Shown: one piece after another, positions 8,213 to 44,115 of the stretch | How positions within the stretch are numbered: the first letter of the stretch is position 1 | Layout: each line of letters begins with the position of its first letter | DNA from: Candidatus Marinacidobacterales bacterium | Lineage (GTDB): Bacteria; Acidobacteriota; Vicinamibacteria; Marinacidobacterales; SMYC01 | Assembly (NCBI GenBank): GCA_965262245.1 | Contig: OZ253507.1 | Coordinates: 8,220,911 to 8,284,910 of the forward strand | Reading direction: 5' to 3' | DNA: 64,000 bases | The notes under the pieces: generated by a model | The model's input: the letters and a program-made list of their open reading frames with translations, nothing else | Told to the model about the DNA's origin: nothing | Databases searched by the model: none | Translations under genes and position numbers: made by a program

Positions 8213-8390
8213 CGCCCTCTCCGGTGCTTCTGCTATCAAGTGTTGGTGAGATGACGCTAAGACTTTACACTGCATTAAGTTACAGCCAAAATAGCGATCG
8301 TGACCTTCGCTGCGCGCTAAATAGAGCGTAAGCGCCTTTTTTGCAAAGGGATACGTACACATCACCAACAGTAAACAGCGCAAGCACCGC
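8213..8390. repeat. MITE family F1 copy (about 170 bp; TIR GGTGCTTCCGCCATTAAGTGTTGGTG)
   Basis: Inverted termini GGTGCTTC(T/C)GC..GTGTTGGTG and CACCAACAG.AAACAGCGCAAGCACC. Same unit at 10780, 11301, 44329, 46185, 53168 and 53922. Confidence 0.75.
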
Positions 8391-17280: not shown

Positions 17281-18153
17281 CCTCAGAACTGGATGCTCGA
17301 CGCGGACATTCGCGGGTTCTTCGATGCCATCGACCACGAATGGCTGATGAAGTTCGTCGAGCATCGGATAGCAGACCAGCGTGTGCTGCGACACATCAAG
17401 AAGTGGCTGAACGCTGGTGTGATGGAGGATGGGAAGCGAACACAGGCGGAGAAGGGAACGCCTCAAGGGGGAAGTGTATCCCCTTTGCTAGCGAACGTGT
17501 ATCTGCACTACGTGTTCGATCTATGGGTCCACCAGTGGAGGAAGAGGCATGCTCGCGGTGAAGTGATCATCGTGCGCTTTGCCGATGACTTCACGGTAGG
17601 ATTCCAGTACCGCGAGGACGCCGAGCGATTCCTGGAGGAACTCAGGGAGCGATTCCAGAGATTCCATCTTGAACTGCACCCCGAAAAGACGCGCCTGATG
17701 GAATTCGGCCGCTATGCTGCCGAGAACCGCAAACGGCGCGGCGAGGGGAAACCCGAGTCTTTCGACTTTCTTGGCTTCACACATACGTGTGACAAGACAA
17801 GGAATGGGAAATTCATAGTGCTTCGGCAGACGATGCGGAAACGGCTGCAGTCGAAACTTCGCGAGATCAAAATCGAGCTGAAGCGACGGCTGCACCATCC
17901 TGTCCCTGAGGTGGGGCAATGGCTAAGGTCGGTCATGCAGGGGCATTTCAACTATTATGCGGTGCCTCGTAACCAACGGAAACTCGGCGCTCTCAAGTAT
18001 CAGGTGTACCGTCTGTGGCTCCGTACGCTACGGCAGAGGAGCCAACGACACCGGATGACCGGGGAGCGCATGAACCGTTTGGCCGACCGCTGGTTTCCAC
18101 CTATTCGTATTTTGCACCCGTACCCCGAACAGCGACTGCGCGTCATGACCTGA
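17281..18153 (+). pseudogene. group II intron RT/maturase, C-terminal part (RT domains 3-7 plus X domain)
   Basis: LDADIRGFFDAIDHEWLMKFV...GTPQGGSVSPLLANVYLH...VRFADDFTVGF...FLGFTH. Confidence 0.8.
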
Positions 18154-25324: not shown

Positions 25325-28300
25325 TTGCCTGACGAAAATGCTGATTTTGATGTAACGCCATTCAACGCGTTCATGGCCGAACGCATGCGATGGGCGGGAC
25401 TTCTTGTGACGATCCAAGAGATTGCTGAGGATAACAAGGCGCTTGTCCATGATCTCTCGACATACGATCCGACCGTGGCTGTTCCATTCTTAGCAGGCCT
25501 CCTGACCTTGCCTGACTATCAATCACATTGCCTTCGCCTTGAAATACTAGTTGCGTTGGCCGTGGCATACTGCCACGGTCGGAAGAAAGCGAATGTCAAC
25601 GAAGCGCAGCGCTGGTTCTCTCAGATCGGAAAATCGCAATGCACGGCCTCCGAGGATCCAGCCGAGGATGTCTTTGTTTCCCTCATCCAGGACGACCGCG
25701 GAGATTACCGACTCTTCGAAGGTGTTTGGGAAGAGGCGGGTTTCTATACCCAGCGCGTTCTTGATGTCATTGCGACGATGCCCGACAGGGGGCAATTTGG
25801 GCAGATCAAGAAAAGCGTTCGCGCGATGCTCACTATCTCTGATTTGGTGTGCGACAAAGCTAAATTACAACGCTATCAGCTCGGCTCCGATAAGCTGCAC
25901 TCCGCGCTGTCGCCACGTAAACTTCCTGGGCGAAATGCCCTGATCTCTCGCGTGACGGTTACTTTCGCTGAGCTCCAAGGGCGTGGGGTCACACATTCCG
26001 ATATCGAGCCATTCCTGTTTCGTCCGCAAATGAAGAAGGATCTCACTGCGCAGAAAATAGGATGCAGCTATTTGGACCGCTATCCACTGATCATGCAGGC
26101 GGACACGCATCTGACAGTCGCACTTCCCTCAGCGCTATCAGTCGCAACGCGGAACTACGCGATTGCCAGCATCATCGAAGGCGGATTGAGCAAGACTTTC
26201 GATGACAGACTCGCAAGGAACTATGCGAAATTGCTTAGCGATACTCCTTTACTCGGCGGCCCCACGGGCGCGCCTGTTCAGTGGGAGACAGTGGGTGAGC
26301 ACCGATGGTCCAATTTCGAACTCAAGGTCGACGAGGGATACTACATCTCCTATCACATCCTTCTGCCATCGATCCAAACGCACACTAATGGCGGTTTCCT
26401 AACCGATTATCAGGTCGAAGACGCTCTGTTCGAAACGCTGGAAAGGTCGATCGATGACGTTATCGCAAAATTAGCGAAGCAACGCGACTTCAAGGAAGGC
26501 CTGGTCATCCTCGTTCGCTCCGGTTGGGGAAAGGCTTGTGCCATTCAAAGTATCGAGTTGAATAATCCCAAATGGCGTTTCCAAAACATGTCCGCAGCTG
26601 ACCTTGTACGACTGAGCAGGTTACGCGATATGAACCCAAACTACTTTTGGCGCATTCAAGATGGGCTGGAGGCTGTGACGAAGGCTGGTGTGAAGATCGT
26701 AAATCTCAACGGCATCCTGAACCTGATCGGCTGGGTGCGCAGCAATGACGGCCATCTCGTGCCACACGCGCGGCTCCCCGACGGCAAGATCTCGCCTGAA
26801 CAACCATTGATGCTCACCCCGCCGCTTAACCTATTGAGGGAGGTACGGGCTGAATCCGACCGGAGTTACGACCGACACAGCTCGTTCGACAACACCGGGA
26901 CGTGGCACCATGTCCAACGTGTCTCCCCCAACCCGTTCTTTGACAGTGAGAGCAGCCGCCGCGTCTATGGCTCTATGGATGATCTGCGCAGCGGAGCCCT
27001 GACATCCGTTTACGAGGGTGCGTTTCGTCTCTGGATCTCTATTGCCACACCGAACATCACCCAAAGAGAGGTCACGTATCGCCTTTGGGAAATGGCCAAT
27101 GAATGGCTGCATCGCATCGGCGCTGCTCTTGATGCACGCGCTGAACGTGTGCCGGAGACACGCAATCTCAAAGTCTACGTTGATTTCCGAGATGTCGATC
27201 CACCCAAGGAGGTAGACGGAAAGCCGACGCCAGAGGAGCTCATTCCGCTCGGCGCAATCGAGGCACATAGCGAGCCGAACGCTTGCAAAGCCGTCTTCGG
27301 GGTCGGTTTTTTGAGGGGCTTCCTCATCGCTGAAAACGTCGCCGAACGCCTATTTGTTCGAAATCTCGTGCGAGCCTTCCTACTCCTTCTTGGTATGGAG
27401 AATGGCGATGGCGAGGCCGAGGCCGAGGCAATTGAGTCTCGCGTCGTTAAAAACAACGAAGCGCGCAGCTTTCACTTCTTCCACGCCCAGAAATTCATGG
27501 ACCATCTTCGGGATACACTGCCCGATGAACTCATCGCGATTGATCCTATAGACGATGGCACTGTCAAGATTGGACTGGGTTGGCGTGTTATTGGGAAAGA
27601 CCAAGGCAACAAGATCGAAGGACGGGAGGCATGCACCGGCTTTCTGGAGAAGGTCGTCGATGTCTTGTTGGACGAAGTCATCAACGCGCTTGCCACGTTC
27701 GACCGTCTTTCCACGCTCAAAAGGCTTGTGACCAATTATGAGAGAGCAAGCACCGAGGAAGACCACTGGACGCGAACATCGGCAGCCCTTCTCGGCCTGT
27801 ACGGGCACGATCCAGGAACCGTTGATCGCATTGTCAAGCAGATGTCGAAGTTTTCCGGTGCCCGTGTTACAAGCCGCATTTTGAGTGAAATTGCTTTGTG
27901 CGTCTGCCCTTCGGAAGGCGGTACCAAGTTATCCAGCATCGAAATGAGCAAATTGATCGCACGCGCTGCACTGGTTGTCCGTATTGGCGGCCTGTCTGAT
28001 GCGATCTATTACAATGCGCTTGCCCCGGAAATTAAGATCTCTCCATTGGGTGATATTCTTTTTCGAGATGAGTTTGGTGAATTGGTGGTTGAACCGATGC
28101 TATCCCACGTGATGGCGGACAGATTTATTGCCAATGCCCCGTTGCAAGATAAAAACTATGAAAAGCCAAGAATCGTAACTAATACGCGAGGGATAATCAG
28201 TAACGAGTTTTGGGATATCTGGAAAAGTGAAATGGGATTCGATATAGATGAAGCGCGCAGCATTATAGACGCTTTAGAGCATAGAGGCATCGCGGAAAAC

Positions 28301-29119
28301 ACTGCGATTCTTGAGATCACTCAAGACGAATATTTCCCATTGGTATGCTCGGATTCGGTCCCCAAAGACGCGGCCGCAAGGTTCTTGAGCCAATTCTCGC
28401 TTGCAACGCGCCAGCGGTGGCAAGATGTTCCCGGAGGCTTTGCGTCCAAGGATATCTATCCGTGGCGTTTTGATCGACGACTGTCTTTCATGACGCGCCC
28501 TATTTTGAAAGTAGACGACAGCGATAACCCCCTGTTGGTTATTCCGCCCGCCGCATTACGAAATGGCTTTGCCTATGTCGTTGATGCTGCCTATAGAGGT
28601 CGGCTCAACCGGTCCTTTTTTCGCACGAAGGAGATGAAAGATACCTGGTGGGGCAAGGCACGTGAAGGTCACAGCTTCAATTCTGAAGTCGCGCTGGCGT
28701 TGTCAGACGCTGGCTGGCAAATCCGAAAAAATATAGGACTTCCAGAACTCCTTAATCGCAAGATGGAGCGGGATTGGGGGGATATTGATGTACTTGCTTG
28801 GAGGTCGGATCGGAACCAGGTACTGGTAATCGAGTGCAAAGATCTTTCCCAGGCGCGCAACTATTCAGAGATCGCTGCATTGCTTTCTGACTACCAAGGT
28901 ATCGAAGCTGACGGAGACGCGGACAGGCTCAAGAAGCATCTCAACCGAGTCTCGCTGCTCCAGGAAAACCAAGAACAGCTTCAGCGGGTTACCAACATTC
29001 AGCGGCCTCAGATTGTTTCCTGCCTTGTTTGTAGTGGTGTCGTACCGATGCAATACGCAAAAATTGACGCGTTAGCGGACACGCACGTCGGTACGATTGA
29101 GAAGATTCTAGCCTTGTAG
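25325..29119 (+). CDS. large (1264 aa) uncharacterised protein with a C-terminal PD-(D/E)xK-like nuclease motif
   Basis: C-terminal ..SEVALALSDAGW..DWGDIDVLAWRSDRNQVLVIECKDL.. fits E..D..ExK. No Walker A or other known motif was found in the first 1080 aa. Confidence 0.6.
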   Translation: MPDENADFDVTPFNAFMAERMRWAGLLVTIQEIAEDNKALVHDLSTYDPTVAVPFLAGLLTLPDYQSHCLRLEILVALAVAYCHGRKKANVNEAQRWFSQIGKSQCTASEDPAEDVFVSLIQDDRGDYRLFEGVWEEAGFYTQRVLDVIATMPDRGQFGQIKKSVRAMLTISDLVCDKAKLQRYQLGSDKLHSALSPRKLPGRNALISRVTVTFAELQGRGVTHSDIEPFLFRPQMKKDLTAQKIGCSYLDRYPLIMQADTHLTVALPSALSVATRNYAIASIIEGGLSKTFDDRLARNYAKLLSDTPLLGGPTGAPVQWETVGEHRWSNFELKVDEGYYISYHILLPSIQTHTNGGFLTDYQVEDALFETLERSIDDVIAKLAKQRDFKEGLVILVRSGWGKACAIQSIELNNPKWRFQNMSAADLVRLSRLRDMNPNYFWRIQDGLEAVTKAGVKIVNLNGILNLIGWVRSNDGHLVPHARLPDGKISPEQPLMLTPPLNLLREVRAESDRSYDRHSSFDNTGTWHHVQRVSPNPFFDSESSRRVYGSMDDLRSGALTSVYEGAFRLWISIATPNITQREVTYRLWEMANEWLHRIGAALDARAERVPETRNLKVYVDFRDVDPPKEVDGKPTPEELIPLGAIEAHSEPNACKAVFGVGFLRGFLIAENVAERLFVRNLVRAFLLLLGMENGDGEAEAEAIESRVVKNNEARSFHFFHAQKFMDHLRDTLPDELIAIDPIDDGTVKIGLGWRVIGKDQGNKIEGREACTGFLEKVVDVLLDEVINALATFDRLSTLKRLVTNYERASTEEDHWTRTSAALLGLYGHDPGTVDRIVKQMSKFSGARVTSRILSEIALCVCPSEGGTKLSSIEMSKLIARAALVVRIGGLSDAIYYNALAPEIKISPLGDILFRDEFGELVVEPMLSHVMADRFIANAPLQDKNYEKPRIVTNTRGIISNEFWDIWKSEMGFDIDEARSIIDALEHRGIAENTAILEITQDEYFPLVCSDSVPKDAAARFLSQFSLATRQRWQDVPGGFASKDIYPWRFDRRLSFMTRPILKVDDSDNPLLVIPPAALRNGFAYVVDAAYRGRLNRSFFRTKEMKDTWWGKAREGHSFNSEVALALSDAGWQIRKNIGLPELLNRKMERDWGDIDVLAWRSDRNQVLVIECKDLSQARNYSEIAALLSDYQGIEADGDADRLKKHLNRVSLLQENQEQLQRVTNIQRPQIVSCLVCSGVVPMQYAKIDALADTHVGTIEKILAL

Positions 29120-29789: not shown

Positions 29790-31510
29790 GAGAAAGAACG
29801 CGGTGTTCCCCGTCCTGTGCCAAAACTCGGCCTTTTGAAACAGACCATAATATCAGCAGCTTAGTGTCTGTGCTTGCGACCGGGTCAAGAGCCGTGCTTC
29901 GGCTACCCACCCAACTTCTACCGGTCGGCAAAGGGTTCCGACAGCAACCGCCGCGCCGCTGCCAGGAGTCGATCCTTCCAGGCAACGCGTTCCCGCCAGT
30001 GGTCGGGGATGGCGTTCAGGCCGTAGAGGGCGCCGGCGAGCTGCCCCGTCACTGCTGCTACCGTATCGGCGTCGTCGGCCAGGTTGGCCGCGAGCAGCAC
30101 CGCGCCGCGGAAGTCTCCGGTGCGGGCGACTGACCAGATGGCGGCTTCGAGCGTGTGAACGACGTACCCGCTGGAGCGGATCGTATCCCGTGTCCGTCCT
30201 CGCCAGCTGCCGGCTATGACCTGAGTGATTGCCGCCGCTCCCGTGAACCGTCTCGGAGCCAGAACGTCCGAGAACGGTGACCCGGCGATGGCGTCCGCTA
30301 GGAGCTCGCCGAACGCCCGGCAGGCGTCCACTGCTTCCTCGGCTCCGTGGGTCGTCCGGGACTGGTCGGCGGCTGCTGCGATCAGGCGCGGCCGGTCGTG
30401 CCTGAACCGGAGCGCAACGGGGGCGAGCCGCATCAGCGAGCCGTTGCCTGCGCTCCAGGGATCGGTCGAACCCGCGACCGGATCACCCGTCTGCAGGTAT
30501 CGAGCGAGTGCTTCTTGGATTGTGTTTCCGATGTCGAAGCAGTGTCCGGTGCACGAGTAGTCTCCGTCCTGCCACCACTTCACGAAACGGGCCATCAGGT
30601 CCCGGCAGTCGAGCGTCTTGGATTCCGCCAGGCTGTCGGCAAGGGCCAGCGCCATGGCCGTGTCGTCGGTCCAGGCACCGGCCGGCAGATCGAAGGGGCC
30701 GCCACCGACCATGTCTTCTAGATGCGGCTGCGTATCGCGAGAGCAGAATTCGAGCGTCGTGCCGACCGCGTCGCCCACCGCCAGACCGAGGAAGGCCCCG
30801 AGCGCCCGGTCGTGGATGTCGTCCGCGGTCCGGGATGGAACCGATGGTGCTTGTGCCGAACACTGCCTCACGTGGGCCAGCTGGGAGTCGTTCTCGATGG
30901 TCCCTTCGTGGGCGTCGCGCACGCGGCGGATCGCATCGTCCGGTTGCACGCCCAACTCCACCAGCAGGCGGGCTGCGATGGTCCCGGCGCGTCCCAGACC
31001 ACCCCGACAGTGGAGCAGCACGTCGAAGCCGAGCCGCAGTCGGTTCCTGATGGACTCGCCGGTGGCCTTCCAGGCGTGCTCGAAGTCCTGTTCCGGCGCC
31101 TCTCCGTCGGGAATCGGGGCATGCCACCACTCCATGTGCCGGTCTCGAACCGCCCTCGGGAGATTGTGCACCTTCAGATAGGCGATTTCTTCGTGGGTGA
31201 TCAGGCTGACCACCGCAGTCGCTCCCCAGTGCTGAATCGCGTCGAGGTCGGCGTCGAGATCCCGCTTCCAGGGCCCGGATATTGCGTAGCGATCGATCCT
31301 ACCGGGGCACTGCGAGAAGCCGATCCGGCCCCGGCCGTCGCCCAGGGTCATCGCCGTGATGCGGAGTGGGTAGCTCTCGCTGGTTCTTGCCGTCGGCATG
31401 GACTCTATTCTCTAACGGGGCTGTGCTCCGCAAAAAAGAAGATTGGCCAGAAGCAGCCAAACATAGTAGGTCTAGAACGTGCAATCAACGCCGGATCGAT
31501 TTTATTGCGG
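29790..31510. repeat. 1.8-kb direct repeat, copy 2
   Basis: See 20430..22270. Confidence 0.8.
29918..31399 (-). CDS. PTP-like phosphatase plus ADP-ribosylglycohydrolase fusion, copy 2
   Basis: About 97% identical to copy 1, with a different C-terminal tail. Confidence 0.75.
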   Translation of the reverse strand: MPTARTSESYPLRITAMTLGDGRGRIGFSQCPGRIDRYAISGPWKRDLDADLDAIQHWGATAVVSLITHEEIAYLKVHNLPRAVRDRHMEWWHAPIPDGEAPEQDFEHAWKATGESIRNRLRLGFDVLLHCRGGLGRAGTIAARLLVELGVQPDDAIRRVRDAHEGTIENDSQLAHVRQCSAQAPSVPSRTADDIHDRALGAFLGLAVGDAVGTTLEFCSRDTQPHLEDMVGGGPFDLPAGAWTDDTAMALALADSLAESKTLDCRDLMARFVKWWQDGDYSCTGHCFDIGNTIQEALARYLQTGDPVAGSTDPWSAGNGSLMRLAPVALRFRHDRPRLIAAAADQSRTTHGAEEAVDACRAFGELLADAIAGSPFSDVLAPRRFTGAAAITQVIAGSWRGRTRDTIRSSGYVVHTLEAAIWSVARTGDFRGAVLLAANLADDADTVAAVTGQLAGALYGLNAIPDHWRERVAWKDRLLAAARRLLSEPFADR

Positions 31511-33190: not shown

Positions 33191-36040
33191 TCAGGCATTT
33201 ATTCGAGTACCTTTCCCGCCATGTACGGATGGCTCAGCGCACCACTGTTTTCGCAGCAGGTCTAGTCCACCCTTTAGACCTGGGTCGATTTGCAGTACGC
33301 TAGTAATTCCGAACAGCAGTTCGCGGTCAAGCGCCTTGCGCGTCTCGTCGCGCCACGCCTCGTTAGCGGGTAGGAACTCGCGATCCTTGAAGTCATCGAA
33401 GATCGCACGGCAGTGATCCACCTGCTCCTCCGTCAAGGTGCGGGGATCGAGCACGGGAAGATCTGGCAGCTTGGAGATCGTGAGTATGGATCGACCTTCC
33501 TGCTGTCTCGTGCCGTGCCACCAGAACAGGATCAGTCCTAGCGTCGAGTTGCACCACAGCAGTAGCGGGATCGCGTACTTCGGTTCGCGCGGGATTACGT
33601 TCGGCCATGCCCTGCCGCCGAGACACTTCTCCGGTGTGAGACACATTGCCAAACTCTGTGAGTTGAGCTGGAAGTCTCGGTTGGAATGGAGACGGGATGC
33701 CGTTCGACGCCACGTCTTGACCGCATGAGACTTCATCTTCGGACGCACTTCGCCACATCTGTCTGGCGGAACGACAAACTGCCGTTCTCGCTCAGCGTTG
33801 TGTCCCCACAACGCGGGATAGGTGGGAATTTCATCCTTGCGGATGGGGCGGATATCGAACGCACCCCGAGGCAGGGCATTGCTTGCGGGTGGCTTGCCGT
33901 TGATGTCCCTATCAACGAGCCCTCGTTCTGCAACATTCCCTAGCTGGGTGACGGCAATGCCTCCCGACGCTAGCGATTGGGGGAACACGAGCTCCCCGCA
34001 AGCTAGTGCCCGTGCTGCATTTCCCACGCTCTCGCTAAGCACTCCTGCTCCGCATGGGTCGAGAAGGCTGCCGTTAAAGGCGCTGCGGATTGCCGGAGCG
34101 TTCGACGTCCCCTGTCCTGTCTCCCTTGCAGTCAGAGCCGATTCCAGCAACCCTGCTGGCCGGTAGGACAGATTCGTGAAACGCATTCCGCCTCCGCTCC
34201 GTTTATTGGCTACGACAAGGCACTCGGCCATGCCCGTGTCTGCCGAGAAAGCCCTTGCCGTCGTCCCCGTCGCGGCGATGGACAGGATGTGGATATCGGA
34301 ATAGCTTGCCGCCAGCGCCTTTCTCGCCTTCTCCCATGCCTGGCCTCGTGCAAGTGAGGATGGCAGTACCAAGGCCAGCACGCCTCCATCTCTCAGCTTG
34401 CGGTGGCCGAGATCCATGAAGTTCGACGCCAGCCCAGCGTTGCCGTGACCGAACTCGGGCTTGCACTTGCCGAGCATTCTCGACATAGCCCTCTGTTCGC
34501 TAAGAGGAGTGCCGAATCCCGCGAAGGATGGGATCGGTATCTCGGCGTGGCCTCCCTCATGGTTTGTGGGCCTCGTGAACGGGGGGTTCATGATGACCAG
34601 ATCGCAGGAGTTGTCCTTGATCGTGACGGAATGCTCGCTACGGCTCTCCGATTCTGTACCGCCCATAGACGCGCCCGTGGCGAACAGGGAGTAGGAATGG
34701 TCGGAATCGAGAAGGTCGAGTGCTCCGATGTGTGTACTGCCCGCGCCATCGATGCCGTAGGGCATCGTGTGGATCTGGGATTTGCCGTAGGCGAGCGACG
34801 GGTGGGAGCTGGACAGCATGGAACAGGTGAGATGCGTTGCGGCGGGCATGATGTCCAGCCCGCTCAGGACGCGCTCCATCAGGGCTTGATGCAAGTCCTT
34901 GTCATCGCAGCCGGCACGTCGATAGCGCCGATACACTGCCCGCTGCGCGGCCGAGAGCAAGGCTCCCGTGCCGCAGGCGAAATCCGCAATCCGCAGCCCT
35001 TCTATCGCGACCCGGTCCGACCAGTCCACGTCCAGCTGCTCGACCGCTAGTTCGGCGAGGAGGCAGGCTGACTCGGGCAATGTGTAGAAGGTGGCCAGGA
35101 ACTTCCGACCCGTGATAAGGGTCTGGAACATCCTCCCAGTAAGGTCGTGATAGGTCGTCGCGCCCAGCTGCGCCAAGTCGGAGATGGACTCCGCGATGCG
35201 GTTCATGACCGGCGGAACCGCCTTGATCGGCAATTCCTTCACCAAATCACTGGCGACGCTGAAGATCGGCCAGTAGTTGACTTCGAGAATCGCGTTCCAT
35301 ACGCCCAGAAGCGTCCCCTTGTCGATAGATCCCGCTAACGGAACCGGCGGGATCTGTTGCTGCCTTTCGATCGCTGCATGAAACACGAAGGCCGAGACGC
35401 AGATAGCCGCTGCCATGCGCTCGGTCTGCTTGCCTTCTCCTTGGTGCAGGTCACGGGCGATCCGCGCCAGTGGGCCCTCACCGGCGTGCTCGGCCAGCAG
35501 TCCCGCCGCGTTCCGTACCACTTGTTCAAGGGCTTCCGTCCCTCGCGCCAGTTGCCGTTCCGAGAGGGACAGGTATTCGATGGCATCAGCAAGGTCGTCC
35601 ACGCCCCCCTCAAGCCACTTCCTCTCCGGCGGCCAGCGGATGCTTTCTCCCTTGGAATCCAGGTAATGCGTGGCGTAGCGCAACGCTGCGCTTTCGATGG
35701 TTTCGAGGTCACCTGTCTTGAGGCTCTCCGGCAAGACAACGGAGAGCACACCTTCGATGTCCTCTCCGGTACTGTGCAAGCTCGTCCCGAGCCTGGCGGT
35801 CGCGTCTTGATCGACCGTGTGTGCGGGGGCGAACTCCGTCTCCACGATCACTGGCTGGCGGCGAGGCGGGGCTATGAGAATGTCCGGCCTCTTGCCTGTC
35901 CCCGTGCCTGGCACAGCTTGCTGAATCACGTGGGTCCGTTCGGCGTGGACAGTGTTGTCGTTCCAGCCTGGGTTTCGTCGTCTCAGCGCACGAGCCAGCG
36001 CACCGTTCGCTTGCGGCTCCGTGTTGCGCGGGCCGCTCAT
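33191..36040 (-). CDS. gamma-class N6-adenine DNA methyltransferase with long N- and C-terminal extensions; candidate MmeI-like Type IIG/IIL enzyme
   Basis: Motif I LRIADFACGTGALL and motif IV DLVIMNPPFTR. N-terminal RPDILIAPPRRQPVIVETEF is a possible nuclease motif that lacks the canonical Lys. 949 aa. Confidence 0.6.
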   Translation of the reverse strand: MSGPRNTEPQANGALARALRRRNPGWNDNTVHAERTHVIQQAVPGTGTGKRPDILIAPPRRQPVIVETEFAPAHTVDQDATARLGTSLHSTGEDIEGVLSVVLPESLKTGDLETIESAALRYATHYLDSKGESIRWPPERKWLEGGVDDLADAIEYLSLSERQLARGTEALEQVVRNAAGLLAEHAGEGPLARIARDLHQGEGKQTERMAAAICVSAFVFHAAIERQQQIPPVPLAGSIDKGTLLGVWNAILEVNYWPIFSVASDLVKELPIKAVPPVMNRIAESISDLAQLGATTYHDLTGRMFQTLITGRKFLATFYTLPESACLLAELAVEQLDVDWSDRVAIEGLRIADFACGTGALLSAAQRAVYRRYRRAGCDDKDLHQALMERVLSGLDIMPAATHLTCSMLSSSHPSLAYGKSQIHTMPYGIDGAGSTHIGALDLLDSDHSYSLFATGASMGGTESESRSEHSVTIKDNSCDLVIMNPPFTRPTNHEGGHAEIPIPSFAGFGTPLSEQRAMSRMLGKCKPEFGHGNAGLASNFMDLGHRKLRDGGVLALVLPSSLARGQAWEKARKALAASYSDIHILSIAATGTTARAFSADTGMAECLVVANKRSGGGMRFTNLSYRPAGLLESALTARETGQGTSNAPAIRSAFNGSLLDPCGAGVLSESVGNAARALACGELVFPQSLASGGIAVTQLGNVAERGLVDRDINGKPPASNALPRGAFDIRPIRKDEIPTYPALWGHNAERERQFVVPPDRCGEVRPKMKSHAVKTWRRTASRLHSNRDFQLNSQSLAMCLTPEKCLGGRAWPNVIPREPKYAIPLLLWCNSTLGLILFWWHGTRQQEGRSILTISKLPDLPVLDPRTLTEEQVDHCRAIFDDFKDREFLPANEAWRDETRKALDRELLFGITSVLQIDPGLKGGLDLLRKQWCAEPSVHGGKGTRINA

Positions 36041-36600
36041 ATTGACATAGCCCTCGCGTCGGAAGGTAGACCATTGAAGCGGATCAAGTCCTTGTAGCGC
36101 AATCGTTTGCCGTTCATGCTCTGGCTCATGATGACAATCTGAGCAATGGTATCAAGATCCCGGATGTTGTGACGGCCCGCAAACTCGTTGACGTGGCGGT
36201 ACAGGTGCTTCGCGCTGATCTTGTGATATGTGCCGTAGTAGCCGCGCTTCAATAGCGACCAGAATGATTCTATGCCGTTCGTGTCCGCTTTTCCATGGAC
36301 GTATTCCTTGGCAATGTTTGGTTGACCGTATCGTGCTCGAATCCCTCCACGCTGTCGTAGGCGCTGGCACCGTCCGTGAAGACAGTGGAGCCGGACTCAA
36401 TGGCGTCCTGCACGAATCCGCTCAGAGTCTCGCTGTCCGTGGATTGCACCGGCTGAGCCTTGACCCGGCCATCGCGCTCCTTCGCGCCCACAACCGCCGT
36501 CTTGCCCATCGTTCCACGGCCTTCCAGATCCTTGCGCTTCGCGTTGCTCATGTTCTTGCGCTTGCAGCCGGCGTTGTTGCACGGCCCGGAGCAAATCGCT
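36037..36600 (-). pseudogene. IS1595-family transposase C-terminal half, frameshifted and truncated by the IS5 insertion
   Basis: KRKNMSNAKRKDLEGRGTMGKTAVVGAKERDGRVKAQ...TDGASAYDS, then shifted ..FWSLLKRGYYGTYHKISAKHLYRHVNEFAGRHN. Confidence 0.6.
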
Positions 36601-37654
36601 GACCTCCCTGTGCCGGTTTCAGAGTCACCCGGCGCAGTACGTATCGGGCATCCCGAGCGCAGCCATCTTGTTGAGTATCTCGCACCCAATTCGGTGTTCA
36701 ACTCGTTGCCTCGCCAACGTTCGAGCCCGCATCTCCGGCCCGATGATCGCCTTGTAACGATAGACCGCGTTCTCCACCATGCTTCGCTTGGTGTAGCCTG
36801 AGAGCTTGTACCATTCACGTCGGCCGTGTCTTTCGATTGCACGAATATGGCGATCGCGCTCCTGCATGGCGGTGTTCGAATTCTGACTGAGCGTCGCGTT
36901 TCGTTGCGGCGGAATCACCACGCGCGTCCTTCGTCCAGGACTGTGCGCTTCGATGGCTTCGTAGACAGCTTCCTTGTCGTATGCACTGTCCGCCGCCACC
37001 GACACTAGAGGTGCTTGAATCTGTGTTAGCAAAGCGGGGACTCGGGTTGCGTCGCGAGCTCGTGACGCCGTCAGTTCGGACGCAACAATGTTCCCTGTCT
37101 CGCGATCAACGGCGATGTGCAACTTGCGCCATGCGCGCTGCTTTGGCGGTTTGCGGGCGGTTCCAACATGAATCCTCAAGCCCGTGCTATCGATCATCAG
37201 GTGGATGGGTTGAGTGCTCGCGGCTTTCGGAATCCGCAGCTTCTTGCGGAGCAACCTCGAGCGCCGACACAACGTCGAGTAGTCCGGGATCTCGATACCG
37301 AGCCCGAGAAGCGAGGCGATCGAGTGCAAGAAGCCTTCGGTTTGTCGGTAGGCGAGCTTGTACACCATCCGGACAACCAGGCCCGTTTCAATCGCCATGT
37401 CTGAATAGACCCGTTGACCGCCAGGCTTACCGGTCTTGTCGGCCTTCCAGTTCGCGATTGCCTCCTCGTCAAACCAGACTGTCAAATCGCCCCGGCGGCG
37501 CAGCCCTTCGTTGTATTCCGCCCAGTTGCGAACGTGGTACTTCTTCTGCTTCGCGTGCTTGTACTGGCAGCGCTTGGGATACTTCATGCTCGAACATACC
37601 TCGGCCACCACCATAGGCGGATTTCGCTCTCAGCCAGAGCGGTGCAACAACGCC
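36570..37654 (-). mobile_element. IS5-family insertion sequence, complete copy (about 1085 bp; TIR GGCGTTGTTGCAC)
   Basis: GGCGTTGTTGCACGG at 36570 and CGGTGCAACAACGCC at 37640-37654. Inserted into the IS1595 fragment. Confidence 0.8.
36625..37614 (-). CDS. IS5-family DDE transposase
   Basis: 329-aa intact ORF. Partial copies at 43131, 54102 and 10951. Confidence 0.85.
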   Translation of the reverse strand: MVVAEVCSSMKYPKRCQYKHAKQKKYHVRNWAEYNEGLRRRGDLTVWFDEEAIANWKADKTGKPGGQRVYSDMAIETGLVVRMVYKLAYRQTEGFLHSIASLLGLGIEIPDYSTLCRRSRLLRKKLRIPKAASTQPIHLMIDSTGLRIHVGTARKPPKQRAWRKLHIAVDRETGNIVASELTASRARDATRVPALLTQIQAPLVSVAADSAYDKEAVYEAIEAHSPGRRTRVVIPPQRNATLSQNSNTAMQERDRHIRAIERHGRREWYKLSGYTKRSMVENAVYRYKAIIGPEMRARTLARQRVEHRIGCEILNKMAALGMPDTYCAG

Positions 37655-37854
37655 GTCAAAGGCCGCCACCTCAAGCGCGTCAAGTGAGATGAGCCCTTAC
37701 CACTATGAGACATGCCAAACCCACCGTTCCAAAAGAGCCGCACCCATTTCAAAAGGGCCGAGTTTTGGCACAGGACGAGTGAGACGGGCCGTGGCAAAAA
37801 TGCTCACGCCCTCGACTCGAAGGCTCGCTACTTCGTCGAACTCCCTAACGGGCC

Positions 37855-39468
37855 TCAATGGCTGGAAACCGGAAGATGCTCGCCGCAATACCCGATCACG
37901 ATCTTTTGGCGGTCTCCATCCCAGTGGAAATGAACGCGTATCGTCCGCGTCGAGTCATCGTCTACACCGATCTTGAGATGCCGGAACATCTCCACCTGCG
38001 TCCCGTCATAGTCGAAGGTTCTCTGACGGCGCATAGCTTTGTTCGTCATGACCGTTTCTGATTCCTTAGCTGCGTACTCGCTCTTCCCAAGCACCCGACG
38101 TGCCTTGCTGTCACCTCCATCCATCAGCCGGTCGCGGTAGGTCGTTACCAGCCGCATGAGTAAGTCGAGCAAGTCGCGCCCATAGATGAATCGCGTCATC
38201 TTGATCGCGCTGGCCCGGGCACTATCTAAGACCGTACACCTATCGCCATAGAATTGTTCGATGATCTCGATGCAATCCAATGGGCTCGGTTCCTCCTTGC
38301 GCACAATCCATTCCAGAAGCGGCTCTGGATTGAAGGCGCCGACGTCGGCGGGGGAAAATCCATCTTTCAGAGATTTGAGCTCGAACTTCTTCGTCCGCAG
38401 CTCCTTCTGCGTCTCCTCGAGATCCTCCTTGTAGCGTGAGAGCTCAGTTTCGAGGTTTGCGTTTTCATCGACGATCTCGTTGAAGTAGCGCTCCTGCTCG
38501 TCCGCGCGGTTCGACGCTTCATCCAGCACCTGACGTAGCTGCTCCGCGTTCATCTTGGCGCTGGTCGCGTGCACCTTCTCCATGCGCCGCCGCATCGAAA
38601 GCTGCATAACGCCTTCTGGCCGCACATGCAGCCGCAGCCTCGGAATGTTGGTGCTCGCGGTGACCCAAGCCAGTACCCGCGAAATGCGCTGCTGCTCTTC
38701 GCCCCAAGCTCGGACTTCGTCGCGGAGGAAGTACCGCGACCGCACGCCCGACATCGACGGGATGGCCAGCACGTTGACGGCTCCGTCCCATGCGGACCAT
38801 GACTGGCCTAGGACCTCTGCCATCTCATAACTGTTTGATCCCGGTAGGACCCGTACAACGTGCGCCAGGCCCACGAGCGTCTTCTGAAGTTTGGTTGGGT
38901 TGACGAGGTACTCCTCGTCACGCATGGCGCTGACTAGCACGATGGCATTGTCCCGGTCACGCCGCTCGACCTCGGCGACAAAGGCCCGGTACGAATCCCG
39001 GTCCTGGCCGACTGTCCTTAAGATCTCGCCGGGCCAGGCGTCTGCGAAGTCCGCACCCTTAGCGGAAAGAACGTTCTTGGTGATGAATTGGATAACACGA
39101 GGCTGCGACGCACTGACAGGGCTTGATACGAGTGTGCTACGTTCATCCGTCTTCACGACGCAAGAGACTTCCAACGTCCCTGCGAACTTCTTGACCCCAA
39201 CCTCCACAATCCATTGCCGTCCGCGGATGTTGTCGTCGCCGTGCTTCAGCACCCATGCGCACAGGGCCGGCTCACCGTCATAGCAACTGTGGATCCGCAG
39301 CCGCGCCTGGTTCTCACCACGATGGCCGTAGTGCTCTCCACCCTGCTTCAATTGATCCGGACGAAGGCCGAACCCGAGTTGCTGCTTGAGCCAACCGCCG
39401 ATGGCCTTGAATACGGCCCACTCGGCATCGACCCCCTGGACACGCAGATGGTTCGCATAAACCAGCAT
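37855..39468 (-). CDS. uncharacterised 537-aa protein with a central coiled-coil segment
   Basis: AAAGGAG RBS 8 nt upstream. Residues 300-370 are a coiled coil (..LRQVLDEASNRADEQERYFNEIVDENANLETELSRYKEDLEETQKELRTKKFELK..). No recognisable catalytic motif. Confidence 0.5.
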   Translation of the reverse strand: MLVYANHLRVQGVDAEWAVFKAIGGWLKQQLGFGLRPDQLKQGGEHYGHRGENQARLRIHSCYDGEPALCAWVLKHGDDNIRGRQWIVEVGVKKFAGTLEVSCVVKTDERSTLVSSPVSASQPRVIQFITKNVLSAKGADFADAWPGEILRTVGQDRDSYRAFVAEVERRDRDNAIVLVSAMRDEEYLVNPTKLQKTLVGLAHVVRVLPGSNSYEMAEVLGQSWSAWDGAVNVLAIPSMSGVRSRYFLRDEVRAWGEEQQRISRVLAWVTASTNIPRLRLHVRPEGVMQLSMRRRMEKVHATSAKMNAEQLRQVLDEASNRADEQERYFNEIVDENANLETELSRYKEDLEETQKELRTKKFELKSLKDGFSPADVGAFNPEPLLEWIVRKEEPSPLDCIEIIEQFYGDRCTVLDSARASAIKMTRFIYGRDLLDLLMRLVTTYRDRLMDGGDSKARRVLGKSEYAAKESETVMTNKAMRRQRTFDYDGTQVEMFRHLKIGVDDDSTRTIRVHFHWDGDRQKIVIGYCGEHLPVSSH

Positions 39469-39485: not shown

Positions 39486-39959
39486 AGTGACCGTTAACCG
39501 AAGTTCGCTGCGCTAACTGTTTGAACCGCTCCAGGTTTTCCGGAGACTGTTTTAGTTGAGTCTCGCCGTCTCTAGCGAGCCTTCCTGCGACCGATAGTAG
39601 TTCATCTCGTACTCGACCGGGGAGACATTTCCAATCGGCTCCAAGAGTCGTTGCGTGTTGTGCCAATGCACTCACTCTAGGGTGACGAACTCGACGTCCT
39701 CGAGACCACGCCAGGGCCCGCGTCGACGGGTCACCTCGGTCTTGTAGAGGCCGATGATGGATTCAGCCAAAGCGTTATCGTAGGAGTCGCCTCGGCTTCC
39801 GACAGAGGGCTTGATGCCGAACTCGGCGAGCCGCTCGGTGTAACGGATCGAGAAGTACTGCACGCCCCGATCACTGTGATGCACCAACGGATCCTCGAGG
39901 TCGAGTCGACGCTCATGCAGCGCTTGCTCCAATGCATCGAGGACGATGTCAACGCTCAA
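39486..39959 (-). pseudogene. IS3-family OrfB C-terminal fragment (frameshifted), ending TGAGTGACC
   Basis: HHSDRGVQYFSIRYT...SRGDSYDNALAESIIGLYKTE, then out of frame EWVHWHNTQRLLEPIGNVSPVEYE. Confidence 0.7.
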
Positions 39960-40212
39960 CGATGTCGCCTGTCCCTTCCCGTCGTGTCCGAAAATACAAA
40001 CGAACTCTAAGACCCGCGCGCCGGTCCGGCGCCGAGTTCATCTATCATTATCGTGGAGAGCGCAACCATCAAGGGCTTGGCAACGCCTTTGTGTTCTTGG
40101 ACACGACGCGCTCCAGACTTCACCCCGCGCTTGGTCCGAACCGCACCCCGGTCTAACATGCCTGGGTTGCCAGCCGTGCGTCTACGCATGGCATAAAGGG
40201 AGGTTCTCTTCG

Positions 40213-40731
40213 ATGCACAGCCAAGTGACTCGTTTTGTTGTTCTTGTCGCGATCGCTGCCGTTGCGGTGAGCGTTGTGGCGTGGGCTCAGTCTCCCCGCG
40301 GCGCATCCAAAGCGACCATAGGCGGAAGCGAGGTTTCCGTGGACTACGGCCGGCCGAGTCTCCGGGGACGCGACATGCTCGGCCAAGCCCCCGTGGGTAC
40401 CGTTTGGCGCACAGGGGCGGATCAATCCACCACGTTCACGACCGGGGCCGACATCACCGTTTCCGGCACTGCGATCGCGAAGGGCGCGTACAGCTTGTTC
40501 ACGAAACGAGTGAGCGAAGACACGTGGCACCTAGTGTTCAACTCCCAGACCGGGCAGTGGGGCACGTCCCACGACGCCAGCCGCGACGTGGGCGAAGCCC
40601 AGCTTACGTGGAAGAAGGACGGAGACGCGACGGAACAGCTCACGATCGAGCTGTCCGGCTCCGGCAACAGCGGCGAGATCAAGCTGATGTGGGGGACCAA
40701 CGTCCTGATCGCTCTGATCGAGTCCAACTAG
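40213..40731 (+). CDS. DUF2911-family secreted protein
   Basis: Signal peptide MHSQVTRFVVLVAIAAVAVSVVAWAQSP, then ..VSVDYGRPSLRGRDMLGQAPVGTVWRTGAD..GQWGT.. Confidence 0.6.
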   Translation: MHSQVTRFVVLVAIAAVAVSVVAWAQSPRGASKATIGGSEVSVDYGRPSLRGRDMLGQAPVGTVWRTGADQSTTFTTGADITVSGTAIAKGAYSLFTKRVSEDTWHLVFNSQTGQWGTSHDASRDVGEAQLTWKKDGDATEQLTIELSGSGNSGEIKLMWGTNVLIALIESN

Positions 40732-41094: not shown

Positions 41095-43032
41095 CTAACC
41101 GCGATCGGGCGCCGGCTTCTGCTCCTCGAGCTCCATCCACCGCTCGAGTGCCTGCTCTAGGGACGTCTTGGCCGCCTCGAGCTCCTCGAGCACAGGCTCG
41201 ACCTCTTCAAAAGGCTGTGCGTAGAAATCAGACGCGCCCGTGCGCTCCTCGAGCACCGCGACTTCTTGCTCCAACGCTTCTATCTTCTCCGGGAGAGCGT
41301 CGAGCTCGAGCTTGAGCTTGTAGCTCAGCTTGGTCGCTGCCCGAGGCGGCTCGGGGCGCGGCTTCTGCTTCGCGTCGTCTCGGGGCGCTCGCGTGGGCCC
41401 TTCCTTCACCGCCAGCGCCCGGCCCTGCCGCGCCCAATCGCTGTAACCACCAACGTAATGCTGGAGCACGCCGCCCTCCTCGAAAACGAGCGTGCTCGTC
41501 ACGACGTTGTCGAGGAAGGTGCGGTCGTGGCTGACGAGGATCAACGTCCCTTTGTAGTCCACGAGCTGCTGTTCCAAAACCTCCAGCGTCTCGAGATCCA
41601 AATCGTTCGTCGGCTCGTCGAGCACGAGCAGGTTGGACGCGCGCGCGAACAGGCGCGCAAGGACGAGCCGGTTGCGCTCGCCTCCCGAAAGCGCCGCGAC
41701 TTTGGACCGCGTCCGCTTGGGACTGAACAGGAATGCGCCGAGGTAGCCGATGACGTGGCGATCGTTCCCCCCATTCGTCACGCTGCGCACAAACTCGCCG
41801 CCGTCGCTTACTGTCTCGGCGACGGTCTTGTCAGGGACGAGCTCCCGTCTCAGCTGATCGAAATAGGCGACCTCGAGCTTCGTCCCGAGCTTCACCGTGC
41901 CGGCCTCGGGCTCGAGCTCTCCGAGCATGATACGCAAGAGCGTGGTCTTCCCGACGCCGTTATTTCCGATGAGCCCTAGCCGGCCGCCGCGAAGAAGCTC
42001 GAGCGAGAGGCCCTCGAACAAGCGGTCCTCTCCATAGCCGTGAGCGACATTCTCGAGCTCGATCACTCGGCGACCGGAGCTCCGCGCCCGCTCGACACGC
42101 ATCCGAGCCGTGCCCTCGCGTTGCGCCCGCTCCCCATGGACCTTCCTCATCGCTTCGAGCGCACGCACGCGCCCTTCGTTTCTCGTGCGCCTCGCCTTGA
42201 TGCCTTGCCGAACCCACGCCTCTTCCTCCGAAAGGCGTTTGTCGAACAAAGCCTCGGCGCGCTCTTCAGCTTCGAGCGCCGCCTCTTTCCGGCGAAGAAA
42301 GTTCTGATAATCCCCCGGCCAGCTCGTGAGCGTCGCCCGATCGAGCTCGACGATTCGAGTCGCGATCCGCTCGAGAAGCGTGCGGTCATGGGTCACGAAG
42401 AGCAAGCTGCCCGAGAACGCTCGCACCCGTTCCTCGAGCCACTCGATCGTATCGAGATCGAGATGGTTCGTCGGCTCGTCGAGCAACAAAAGCTCGGGAC
42501 GGGAGACCAGCGCGCGCGCGAGGGCCGCTCGGCGCCGCCAGCCTCCCGATAGCGCGCTCATCTTTCGATCCGCGGGCAAGCCCATCTCGAGCATCAAGCT
42601 CTCCACGCGCTTCTCGAGATCCCATCCGGACTCGGCGTCGATACGGTGCTGAAGCTTCTCGAGCTCGCGGAGTCCAGGGGCATCCAGATTCTGCGTCGTA
42701 AGGCGTTGATACTCGTCGATCAAAAGCTGCAGTGAGCGCAACCCAGCCGCGACGTGATCGCGAACTGTGGCGTCGCCGGCTTCGGGGAGTGTCTGCGCGA
42801 GCTGGCTTATGCGGAGGTCCGCTTTGTGTTTGATTTGGCCGGCATCGGGCTTCTCGTCTCCGGCGATGAGTCGGAGCAAGGTCGTTTTACCGGCGCCGTT
42901 GCGCCCGATGAGGCACACCCGCTCACCCGGCTCGAGCACGAGAGAGGCCTCGCGCAATATGGGGTGGTCGCCGATCTCGTAGCTTACAGCGTCGACGGTC
43001 AGAAGCGGCATCAGCGCCGGGATTATAGACAT
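41095..43032 (-). CDS. ABC-F family ATPase (two ABC domains, linker, C-terminal coiled coil; Uup/EttA-like)
   Basis: Two Walker A (GRNGAGKTT, GNNGVGKTT), two LSGG signatures, and coiled-coil tail. Confidence 0.85.
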   Translation of the reverse strand: MSIIPALMPLLTVDAVSYEIGDHPILREASLVLEPGERVCLIGRNGAGKTTLLRLIAGDEKPDAGQIKHKADLRISQLAQTLPEAGDATVRDHVAAGLRSLQLLIDEYQRLTTQNLDAPGLRELEKLQHRIDAESGWDLEKRVESLMLEMGLPADRKMSALSGGWRRRAALARALVSRPELLLLDEPTNHLDLDTIEWLEERVRAFSGSLLFVTHDRTLLERIATRIVELDRATLTSWPGDYQNFLRRKEAALEAEERAEALFDKRLSEEEAWVRQGIKARRTRNEGRVRALEAMRKVHGERAQREGTARMRVERARSSGRRVIELENVAHGYGEDRLFEGLSLELLRGGRLGLIGNNGVGKTTLLRIMLGELEPEAGTVKLGTKLEVAYFDQLRRELVPDKTVAETVSDGGEFVRSVTNGGNDRHVIGYLGAFLFSPKRTRSKVAALSGGERNRLVLARLFARASNLLVLDEPTNDLDLETLEVLEQQLVDYKGTLILVSHDRTFLDNVVTSTLVFEEGGVLQHYVGGYSDWARQGRALAVKEGPTRAPRDDAKQKPRPEPPRAATKLSYKLKLELDALPEKIEALEQEVAVLEERTGASDFYAQPFEEVEPVLEELEAAKTSLEQALERWMELEEQKPAPDRG

Positions 43033-43090
43033 TTCGTTGCGATGGGCGTCCACGGGGGAGTCGAGTTACGATGAAATTCCGGCAGTTGTC

Positions 43091-44115
43091 GGCGTTGTTG
43101 CACCGCTCTGGCTGAGAGCGAAATCCGCCTATGGTGGTGGCCGAGGTATGTTCGAGCATGAAGTATCCCAAGCGCTGCCAGTACAAGCACGCGAAGCAGA
43201 AGAAGTACCACGTTCGCAACTGGGCGGAATACAACGAAGGGCTGCGCCGCCGGGGCGATTTGACAGTCTGGTTTGACGAGGAGGCAATCGCGAACTGGAA
43301 GGCCGACAAGACCGGTAAGCCTGGCGGTCAACGGGTCTATTCAGACATGGCGATTGAAACGGGCCTGGTTGTCCGGATGGTGTACAAGCTCGCCTACCGA
43401 CAAACCGAAGGCTTCTTGCACTCGATCGCCTCGCTTCTCGGGCTCGGTATCGAGATCCCGGACTACTCGACGTTGTGTCGGCGCTCGATGTTGCTCCGCA
43501 AGAAGCTGCGGATTCCGAAAGCCGCGAGCACTCAACCCATCCACCTGATGATCGATAGCACGGGCTTGAGGATTCATGTTGGAAACGCTCGCAAACCGCC
43601 AAAGCAGCGCGCATGGCGCAAGTTGCACATCGCCGTTGATCGCGAGACAGGGAACATTGTTGCGTCCGAACTGACGGCGTCACGAGCTCGCGACGCAACC
43701 CGAGTCCCCGCTTTGCTAACACAGATTCAAGCACCTCTAGTGTCGGTGGCGGCGGACAGTGCATACGACAAGGAAGCGGTCTACGAAGCCATCGAAGCGC
43801 ACAGTCCTGGACGAAGGACGCGCGTGGTGATTCCGCCGCAACGAAACGCGACGCTCAGTCAGAATTCGAACACCGCCATGCAGGAGCGCGATCGCCATAT
43901 TCGTGCCATCGAAAGACACGGCCGACGTGAATGGTACAAGCTCTCAGGCTACACCAAGCGAAGCATGGTGGAGAACGCGGTCTATCGTTACAAGGCGATC
44001 ATCGGGCCGGAGATGCGGGCTCGAACGTTGGCGAGGCAACGAGTTGAACACCGAATTGGGTGCGAGATACTCAACAAGATGGCTGCGCTCGGGATGCCCG
44101 ATACGTACTGCGCCG
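43091..44115 (+). mobile_element. IS5-family copy, right end truncated and replaced by a family-B terminal repeat
   Basis: Left TIR GGCGTTGTTGCACCG at 43091. Transposase 43131.. diverges after ..MPDTYCA. Confidence 0.75.

Follow-up and report, generated by a model that had tools for sequence, protein, structure and literature searches.

A solitary gene in a Candidatus Marinacidobacterales defense island encodes a candidate single-chain restriction-modification enzyme of an uncharacterized sequence family

The subject of our study is a gene for a 949-amino-acid (aa) protein on the reverse strand of a 64-kb stretch of DNA from a Candidatus Marinacidobacterales bacterium (assembly GCA_965262245.1, contig OZ253507.1, positions 8,220,911 to 8,284,910; hereafter "the window", meaning the whole stretch of 64,000 nucleotides that was analyzed). 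An initial annotation had described this open reading frame (ORF) as an MmeI-like Type IIG restriction-modification candidate. It is a genuine gene rather than a chance ORF: it runs intact from an ATG start without any internal stop, its product has full-length homologues, and codon-level comparison with four of these gave an overall ratio of nonsynonymous to synonymous substitution rates (dN/dS) of 0.11–0.27, indicating purifying selection. A tblastn search of the window found no further copy of the gene, whether whole or partial. Its segments and motifs are as follows, with all motif positions obtained by re-translation:

33191..36040, (-) strand: complete gene, 949 aa (ORF and translation; ATG start, no internal stop)
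35561..36040, (-) strand: N-terminal domain, aa 1–160, with a predicted PD-(D/E)xK-type endonuclease fold
35111..35560, (-) strand: all-helical connector, aa 161–310 (helices of the AlphaFold model)
34166..35110, (-) strand: gamma-class N6-adenine DNA methyltransferase domain, aa 311–625 (motifs, profile and fold matches)
33716..34165, (-) strand: variable cassette, aa 626–775, candidate target-recognition determinant (segment identities, dN/dS)
33191..33715, (-) strand: conserved C-terminal domain, aa 776–949, and stop codon (conservation and predicted local distance difference test, pLDDT)
35834..35887, (-) strand: putative catalytic motif P52-D53...E67-T68-E69 (conservation and model)
36017-36019, (-) strand: E8 in helix 1, conserved acidic residue (conservation)
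35939-35941, (-) strand: E34, conserved acidic residue (conservation)
34964-34984, (-) strand: motif I, DFACGTG, aa 353–359 (DFACGTGALL, aa 353–362)
34577-34588, (-) strand: motif IV, NPPF, aa 485–488
aa 51–70, (-) strand: RPDILIA...VIVETEF

Homologues of the window protein are numerous. In a word-indexed search against 5.8 billion proteins, 6,473 were found at E ≤ 0.001, the best 120 being full length and 69–97% identical. Exhaustive searching of 50%-identity representatives with HMMER yielded 1,010 clusters at E < 1e-30, and the cluster representatives listed are mostly 940–1,000 aa long and aligned end to end. At NCBI, family members are called "hypothetical protein" and the distant plasmid homologues "N-6 DNA methylase". 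None of the three libraries that we searched (Pfam, NCBIfam, and PADLOC) contains a full-length model for the 949-aa protein: Pfam yielded only sub-threshold matches at the two methylase motifs (MTS, Eco57I, and N6_Mtase), while the PADLOC matches to MTase_II, mad2, PglX, and IIG were partial and all fell within aa 272–622 (the longest covering aa 310–615), with DrmMI also matching in part only. Judged from its score of 18.9 bits against a gathering cut-off of 25.3, membership of the window protein in the Eco57I Pfam family (PF07669) would be borderline; PF07669 is nonetheless the Pfam domain on record, in entries that display no scores, for 26 of the 120 listed homologues. Given these partial or sub-threshold matches and the generic names, the family is unannotated in the libraries searched and is best described as an uncharacterized sequence family inside the known class of single-chain restriction-modification enzymes.

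The overall architecture was assessed with an AlphaFold2 model (mean pLDDT of 82, predicted template modeling score of 0.84) built from a 56-sequence alignment of proteins with 47–89% identity to the window protein. In a Foldseek comparison with the PDB, the top match over about the whole chain was the Type IIG enzyme BpuSI (3S1S, also classed as Type IIS and IIC; E 1.8e-16), followed by DrdV (Type IIL; E 3e-13), LlaBIII (Type ISP), CamA, BrxX/PglX, and Type I HsdM. BpuSI consists of a nuclease domain (residues 6–174), a helical connector (175–289), a methyltransferase domain (293–579), and then a recognition domain (PMC3185434), and the window protein is predicted to follow the same order with boundaries at 1–160, 161–310, 311–625, and 626–949, the connector occupying the same position. 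The combination of nuclease, methyltransferase, and shared recognition domain in one chain by which Type IIG/IIC enzymes are classified is thus found in the predicted fold. The two proteins differ in that their aligned identity is 14% at a template modeling (TM) score of only 0.36–0.39, in that the N-terminal domain of the window protein has no detectable sequence similarity to BpuSI, and in that the window family carries NPPF instead of NPPY together with a spacing of roughly 130 residues between motifs I and IV that includes an extra beta-rich insert. The BpuSI system also has two separate methylases besides the fused enzyme, whereas the window gene is solitary (see below).

Motif I of the methyltransferase (DFACGTGALL), placed near aa 350 by the initial annotation, was located at aa 353–362, and its residues D353, C356, G357, and G359 are invariant in 44 of 44 diverse family members reaching down to 32% identity, the set on which all our conservation counts are based. 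The NPPF of motif IV had correctly been seen but was placed near aa 470, about 15 residues before its true position at aa 485–488, where N485, P486, and P487 are invariant in all 44 proteins as well. This order of motif I, then NPPF, and then a variable region (aa 626–775) is that of the gamma class, with about 130 residues and the extra beta-rich insert separating the two motifs. A profile search of PDB sequences matched this domain to DrdV (7lo5; best, with E 2.9e-4) and BrxX, and the fold and profile matches further include TaqI-like and HsdM-like methylases, but sequence similarity to solved Type IIG/IIL/PglX enzymes is limited to the methyltransferase motifs at E values of about 3e-4 or weaker. 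The preceding connector comprises seven helices in the full-length model (161–185, 188–197, 204–224, 241–254, 258–269, 275–292, and 299–309).

For the N-terminal domain, a separate model (pLDDT 89) shows an alpha-beta-beta-beta-alpha-beta core formed by helices 8–22 and 76–83 and strands 31–33, 54–56, 64–70, and 97–103, in which D53 directly precedes strand 2 while E67 and E69 stand at the end of strand 3. MmeI has D70, E80, and K82 in the same placement, with the aspartate at the start of strand 2 and the ExK closing strand 3 (PMC2731913), and BpuSI likewise displays a helix-1 acid (E21), an aspartate before strand 2 (D60), and an ExK in strand 3 (E76, K78; PMC3185434), so that the window family shares with BpuSI the helix-1 acid, the D before strand 2, and an E-x-(K/E) in strand 3, except that position 69 is mostly E and not K. 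D53 and E67 are present in every one of the 44 family members, E8 in 42, and E34 in 40, while position 69 holds E (36 members), K (7), or D (1), so that the canonical PD...ExK is a minority form within the family; an Aminobacter plasmid homologue with 26% identity over nearly its full length also has the canonical arrangement (PD...IEGKF, hence E-G-K). The initial annotation had spotted RPDILIA..VIVETEF in the N-terminal extension, where we found it at aa 51–70, and had suggested a PD..ExK variant lacking the lysine. The lysine is indeed absent, but because 7 of 44 family members carry E-x-K at the same position, an E-x-E site of the BamHI type is the better interpretation of the motif.

Active enzymes such as BamHI are known to have a glutamate where the catalytic lysine would be expected (PMC4081073), and the window protein is similar in its D53...E67-x-E69 with the upstream acids E8 and E34. 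The resemblance concerns this active-site variant only, as BamHI, a Type IIP enzyme, acts as a small homodimer, is accompanied by a separate methylase, and has no detectable homology to the window protein. With a dN/dS of 0.10–0.12, the N-terminal domain is as constrained as the methyltransferase domain (0.09–0.19). A PD-(D/E)xK-type fold appears well supported and catalytic competence probable; in place of the non-nuclease N-terminus that the initial annotation had named as the contrary case, the domain combines nuclease topology with invariant acidic residues.

The initial annotation had further suggested that the C-terminal region could accommodate a target-recognition domain, and aa 626–775 do behave as a swappable cassette. 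In a comparison of the window protein to 17 homologues with 70–89% overall identity, this segment reached only 36–46% identity in 13, against 68–89% for the other four segments; the window's own cassette type was found in 4 of the 17, at 69–87% identity. It is the least conserved stretch of at least 50 residues in both alignments, including that of the diverse set, and has the highest dN/dS (0.24–0.34, as opposed to around 0.1 elsewhere). A tandem pair of paralogues in a Hyphomonadaceae metagenome-assembled genome (MAG; OZ253505.1, locus L051, 6001-12492), whose genome has further copies at loci L043 and L053, is 95–99% identical across N-terminal domain, connector, and methylase but 71–76% across cassette and C-terminal domain, which suggests recombination that swapped specificity. 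Since whole-segment replacement typifies the recognition modules of restriction-modification enzymes, aa 626–775 are likely the target-recognition determinant.

The C-terminal domain that follows (aa 776–949) is highly conserved, with strings such as LNSQSLA, GGRAWPN, WxNSTLGL, and WCAEPSVHGGK, and is mostly modeled with pLDDT above 90. It matched no family in the Pfam scan and may be part of a recognition or clamp module. A Dinoroseobacter plasmid match to aa 691–922 was considered as an independent protein made of this domain and rejected, as it is a gene fragment among insertion sequence (IS) elements.

The MmeI family, including DrdV (5HR4, 7LO5, and 7LVV), comprises solitary single-chain enzymes with the order nuclease, helical spacer, gamma-class methylase, and recognition domain, whose specificity changes through varied contact residues in the C-terminal recognition domain (PMC2731913, PMC4833311). 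The window gene is likewise solitary, with no second methyltransferase among the scanned flanking ORFs, but its family seems to vary specificity by replacement of a whole cassette rather than by point changes. The MmeI models of Pfam (MmeI_N, hel, Mtase, TRD, and C) gave no match at E ≤ 1 in the window protein, and MmeI is found neither among the top 50 fold matches nor among the PDB sequence matches. Of the original MmeI-like Type IIG designation, the single-chain layout of nuclease, methylase, and recognition region is retained, while the MmeI label is not; membership in the MmeI family (Type IIL), the hallmarks of which are one-strand methylation and cleavage about 20/18 nucleotides from the site, is not supported by these comparisons. 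Relative to the characterized examples, the predominant E-x-E, the cassette replacement, the NPPF, and the tandem arrays described below are differences that leave the kind of system unchanged.

To see the gene in its surroundings, we called and clustered ORFs at 80 related loci from species-representative genomes. No conserved partner gene emerged, as the commonest flanking family of at least 90 aa (excluding ORFs that overlap the gene) occurred in 8 of the 80 loci, and neither did a conserved small controller or antitoxin ORF of at least 40 aa within 1.5 kb, where the commonest family was found in 5 of 80. Nine further places inspected by hand contained no separate nuclease, second methylase, or brx, drm, mad, or hsd genes. 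In the window itself, the scanned ORFs include no brx, drm, mad, or hsd gene and no separate restriction gene, the latter as the initial annotation had observed for the immediate surroundings. The 949-aa gene is thus solitary. Defense genes do occur around it, such as a Gabija-like pair of OLD-TOPRIM and UvrD genes near one homologue (L001), DruA, GmrSD, and HEPN genes with integrases near another (L093), and toxin-antitoxin genes near three more (L004, L010, and L011); the window, with its own defense genes described further below, and several of the homologue loci are defense islands.

According to their record titles, the related loci come from Acidobacteriota, Gemmatimonadota, Latescibacterota, Cyanobacteria, Alpha- and Gammaproteobacteria, Rhodothermales, Acidimicrobiia, Chloroflexota (many of them Dehalococcoidia and Caldilineaceae), Binatia, Spirochaetes, and Verrucomicrobia, and some genomes have multiple copies. 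Most records are MAGs with names that we take to point to symbionts of sponges or other aquatic hosts (e.g., "Candidatus Poriferisodalis" or Thioalkalivibrio sp. HK1); a literature search by accession number found no paper on a sponge origin of the related genomes. A 35%-identical member resides on a plasmid of a soil Nitrosospira, so the family is not confined to the symbiont habitat.

Tandem copies were found in other genomes besides that of the Hyphomonadaceae pair. In a Rhodothermales MAG (OZ244857.1; L026, 1967-14441), a 3,592-bp unit is repeated head to tail, with at least four copies that are 100% identical where compared; each contains one full-length family gene (96–100% protein identity), and the array extends beyond the fetched locus. 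Another locus (L031) has two such near-identical tandem copies, and these two arrays may be either real amplification or an assembly artifact. A further pair of tandem paralogues (L012, 4834-10952) is 78% identical throughout.

The plasmid homologue mentioned above, on pUSP4 of Aminobacter sp. MSH1 (L007, 7404-10247), and one on the Sulfuricystis plasmid pSTJ1 (L008, 7245-10160; matched at 28.5% over aa 254–833) lie on mobilizable plasmids beside genes for a zincin-like metallopeptidase (ArdC-like), DUF3560, a topoisomerase, and PRTRC proteins, neighbors typical of establishment regions. As a separate observation, a family member in a Paracoccaceae MAG adjoins a gene for a 946-aa protein (L090, 1587-4427) with DLACGSG and NPPF motifs. 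This protein, whose identity is only 16–25% and in which the alignment shows none of the acidic N-terminal residues, may represent another large methylase family, distinct from the present one.

We consider it fairly probable that the 949-aa protein is a solitary, self-sufficient restriction-modification enzyme of a Type IIG/IIL-like kind. The variable cassette together with the conserved C-terminal domain would read a short DNA sequence, in which the gamma-class methyltransferase would use S-adenosylmethionine to methylate adenine at N6 and thus mark host DNA as self. The N-terminal PD-(D/E)xK-type domain would cut unmethylated incoming DNA, probably at a constant offset from the recognition site; the offset would be set by the helical connector that tethers this domain, as in BpuSI, MmeI, and DrdV. 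Metal is likely bound by E8, D53, and E67, with E69 replacing the usual lysine as in BamHI. With protection and attack in one chain, such a gene could move and work alone, and this one-gene autonomy would fit its solitary occurrence in many lineages as well as its location in defense islands.

Several results weigh against this interpretation. The window protein and most family members lack the canonical lysine, and the similarity of the isolated domain to known nucleases is faint: Foldseek against the PDB gave nothing significant (best E 0.1, in a weak list that includes Cas4, Exo5, ACE1, AdnAB, SfsA, and Card1), and the matches in a library of predicted viral structures were marginal (E 2e-3 to 0.3, probability up to 0.93), even if the named ones are nearly all PD-(D/E)XK nucleases, RecB-family exonucleases, MmcB, VRR-NUC, Mrr, or Holliday-junction resolvases. 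A Pfam scan of 26 diverse N-terminal domains at E ≤ 10 returned scattered single matches only, a profile search of PDB sequences with this domain nothing relevant, and an hhalign comparison with the FokI cleavage domain no match (probability 0.2). Regarding the whole chain, TM scores to BpuSI and DrdV reach only 0.3–0.4, and the matches to PglX, a non-nuclease, and CamA, an orphan methylase, are about equally good, with BrxX/PglX having the highest query TM scores (0.38–0.45); modest values of 0.3–0.45 are expected for multi-domain proteins because their domains stand at differing angles. In addition, near-identical tandem amplification as in the two arrays is atypical of restriction enzymes, and the native upstream region of the window gene has been replaced by a transposase remnant, leaving its promoter and expression uncertain.

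Some of these observations would be accounted for if the protein were a methyltransferase only, that is, an orphan DNA adenine methylase with a nuclease-fold domain that no longer cuts and instead serves in DNA binding, oligomerization, or regulation, in which case its role would be epigenetic control or protection against the restriction systems of other organisms. Besides the missing lysine (with glutamate in its place in 36 of 44 diverse members) and the fold matches to CamA and PglX that are as strong as those to Type IIG/IIL enzymes, a pure methylase would more easily tolerate tandem identical copies. Also, plasmid settings with ArdC-like and topoisomerase genes, beside which the distant homologues are found on mobilizable plasmids, are places where anti-restriction methylases occur. 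MmeI relatives without a nuclease motif are known as well, and these do not cleave (PMC2731913). We nevertheless regard this explanation as unlikely, though as one to be taken seriously. Down to 32% identity, D53 and E67 never vary, and E8 and E34 are retained in at least 90% of the members. The N-terminal domain is constrained as strongly as the methylase, and the interchange of E and K happens exactly at the position of the catalytic lysine, where E is competent in BamHI (PMC4081073). The variability of the cassette and the repeated location in defense islands also fit a restriction system better.

A role as subunit of a dispersed multi-gene system (PglX of BREX, DrmMI of DISARM, MAD2 of MADS, or a Type I-like complex) appears very improbable to us. 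PglX does resemble the window protein as a large gamma-class N6-adenine methylase with a helical N-terminal region, a C-terminal recognition domain, and a motif I of D-P-A-C-G-S-G compared to D-F-A-C-G-T-G, and apart from the top query TM scores of BrxX/PglX there are the weak PADLOC and NCBIfam matches to PglX, mad2, and DrmMI over the methyltransferase motifs. Yet these score far under the family cut-offs, at 18.7 bits against 500 for BREX-1 PglX (NF033452) and 9.6 bits against 720 for MAD2 (NF047738), and neither the 80 surveyed loci nor those inspected by hand have a conserved neighbor. PglX moreover depends on other brx genes and is without a nuclease motif, while the window protein has a conserved PD..ExE/K site and no brx neighbors, the presence of which was the second contrary case that the initial annotation had raised. 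BREX, DISARM, MADS, and Type I subunit assignments were therefore rejected on the grounds of family scores and absent conserved neighbors. Least credible of all is methylation of a non-DNA substrate such as RNA or protein with a resemblance limited to the shared Rossmann fold, for which the best Pfam E-value (the generic small-methyltransferase model MTS at NPPF) and the rRNA N6-adenine methylase METTL5 in the PDB profile search (E 0.004) could be cited, because neither of these matches extends beyond some 20 residues around NPPF, DNA restriction-modification enzymes and DNA methylases with recognition domains account for every whole-chain fold match, and helical connector and methylase are arranged as in HsdM of Type I systems and in Type IIG enzymes (PMC3185434).

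The mechanism of a single-chain restriction-modification enzyme is not new, as such enzymes are already well known, and the value of the family thus lies in annotation, new specificities, and an ecological pattern. A large family spread over many phyla has been overlooked; with a name for it, many genomes could be annotated correctly, and the catalogues of defense islands would gain a one-gene system. With its cassette-like segment and the natural alternation of E and K at the catalytic position, the family lends itself to the discovery of new recognition specificities, and the function of E-x-E could be examined in a fused enzyme. The concentration in symbionts, if confirmed, would bear on phage pressure and gene flow in dense host-associated communities. 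One could go further and envision that host-associated marine communities widely share a one-gene restriction system, exchanged by horizontal transfer, that provides a community-level label of "self" and that joins a BamHI-like E-x-E site with tandem amplification and with swaps of whole cassettes between copies to change specificity, though we consider this combined scenario improbable. If unrelated co-resident symbionts shared a cassette type, they would have a common methylation mark by which DNA could move among them while outside phage DNA would be excluded.

The remainder of the window is riddled with insertion sequences and contains the following features of interest around the methylase gene:

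36041..36842, (-) strand: frameshifted IS1595-family transposase remnant directly upstream of the methylase gene (sequence; NCBIfam IS1595 on ORF 36270-36842)
25325-29119, (+) strand: Upx, single-gene anti-phage protein of 1,264 aa (PADLOC PDLC02221, E=0 over 1-1263; no Pfam match)
37855-39468: HEC-07 candidate defense gene
11949-13130, (+) strand: PDC-S48 candidate, a DEDDh exonuclease-TerB fusion (PADLOC full-length match, E 4e-99)

The TGA that closes the last frame of the IS1595 remnant overlaps the ATG of the methylase gene (ATATGA), and an IS5-like element lies beyond the remnant. This arrangement was found only in the window, a duplicate contig (L095), and a 97%-identical locus (L094) and therefore reflects local history rather than a part of the system. 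That the 949-aa gene is cargo of IS1595 was considered and rejected, as the other loci have unrelated flanks. The initial annotation was right in describing the flanks as IS fragments but incomplete, since the Upx and HEC-07 genes are both located within 8 kb of the methylase gene. In the NCBIfam scan, the Upx ORF scored 1820 bits with NF042954, slightly below the cut-off of 1900.

Further observations on the window concern its mobile and repeated DNA. Two inverted IS5-like copies of 1,036 nucleotides (36630-37665 and 43080-44115; 99% identical) enclose the HEC-07 candidate, a DUF2911 gene (39946-40731), and an ABC-F ATPase gene (41095-43053) in a layout that resembles a composite transposon. 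Two genes on the reverse strand (20635-22155 and 29918-31399) encode 96%-identical proteins with a dual-specificity phosphatase ("Swiss Army Knife" PTP-SAK) and an ADP-ribosylglycohydrolase, bracketing an outer-membrane beta-barrel gene, an rve-type transposase, and Upx. Repeats of 167–212 nucleotides with 77–95% identity occur in both orientations around positions 8220, 10784, 11311, 44329, 46183, 53168, and 53922; they often abut IS copies and look like miniature inverted-repeat transposable elements or IS-end sequences. A reverse-transcriptase ORF of 286 aa (17293-18153, (+) strand) matches RVT_1 at positions 71–204 only, which is the C-terminal part, and it looks shortened and may be a remnant of a group II intron or a defense reverse transcriptase. 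Elsewhere, a 550-aa ORF (56307-57959, (+) strand) has no match in Pfam, PADLOC, or NCBIfam, and a gene at 1080-1973 on the (-) strand encodes a eukaryotic-type (alpha) carbonic anhydrase (PF00194, E 8e-41).

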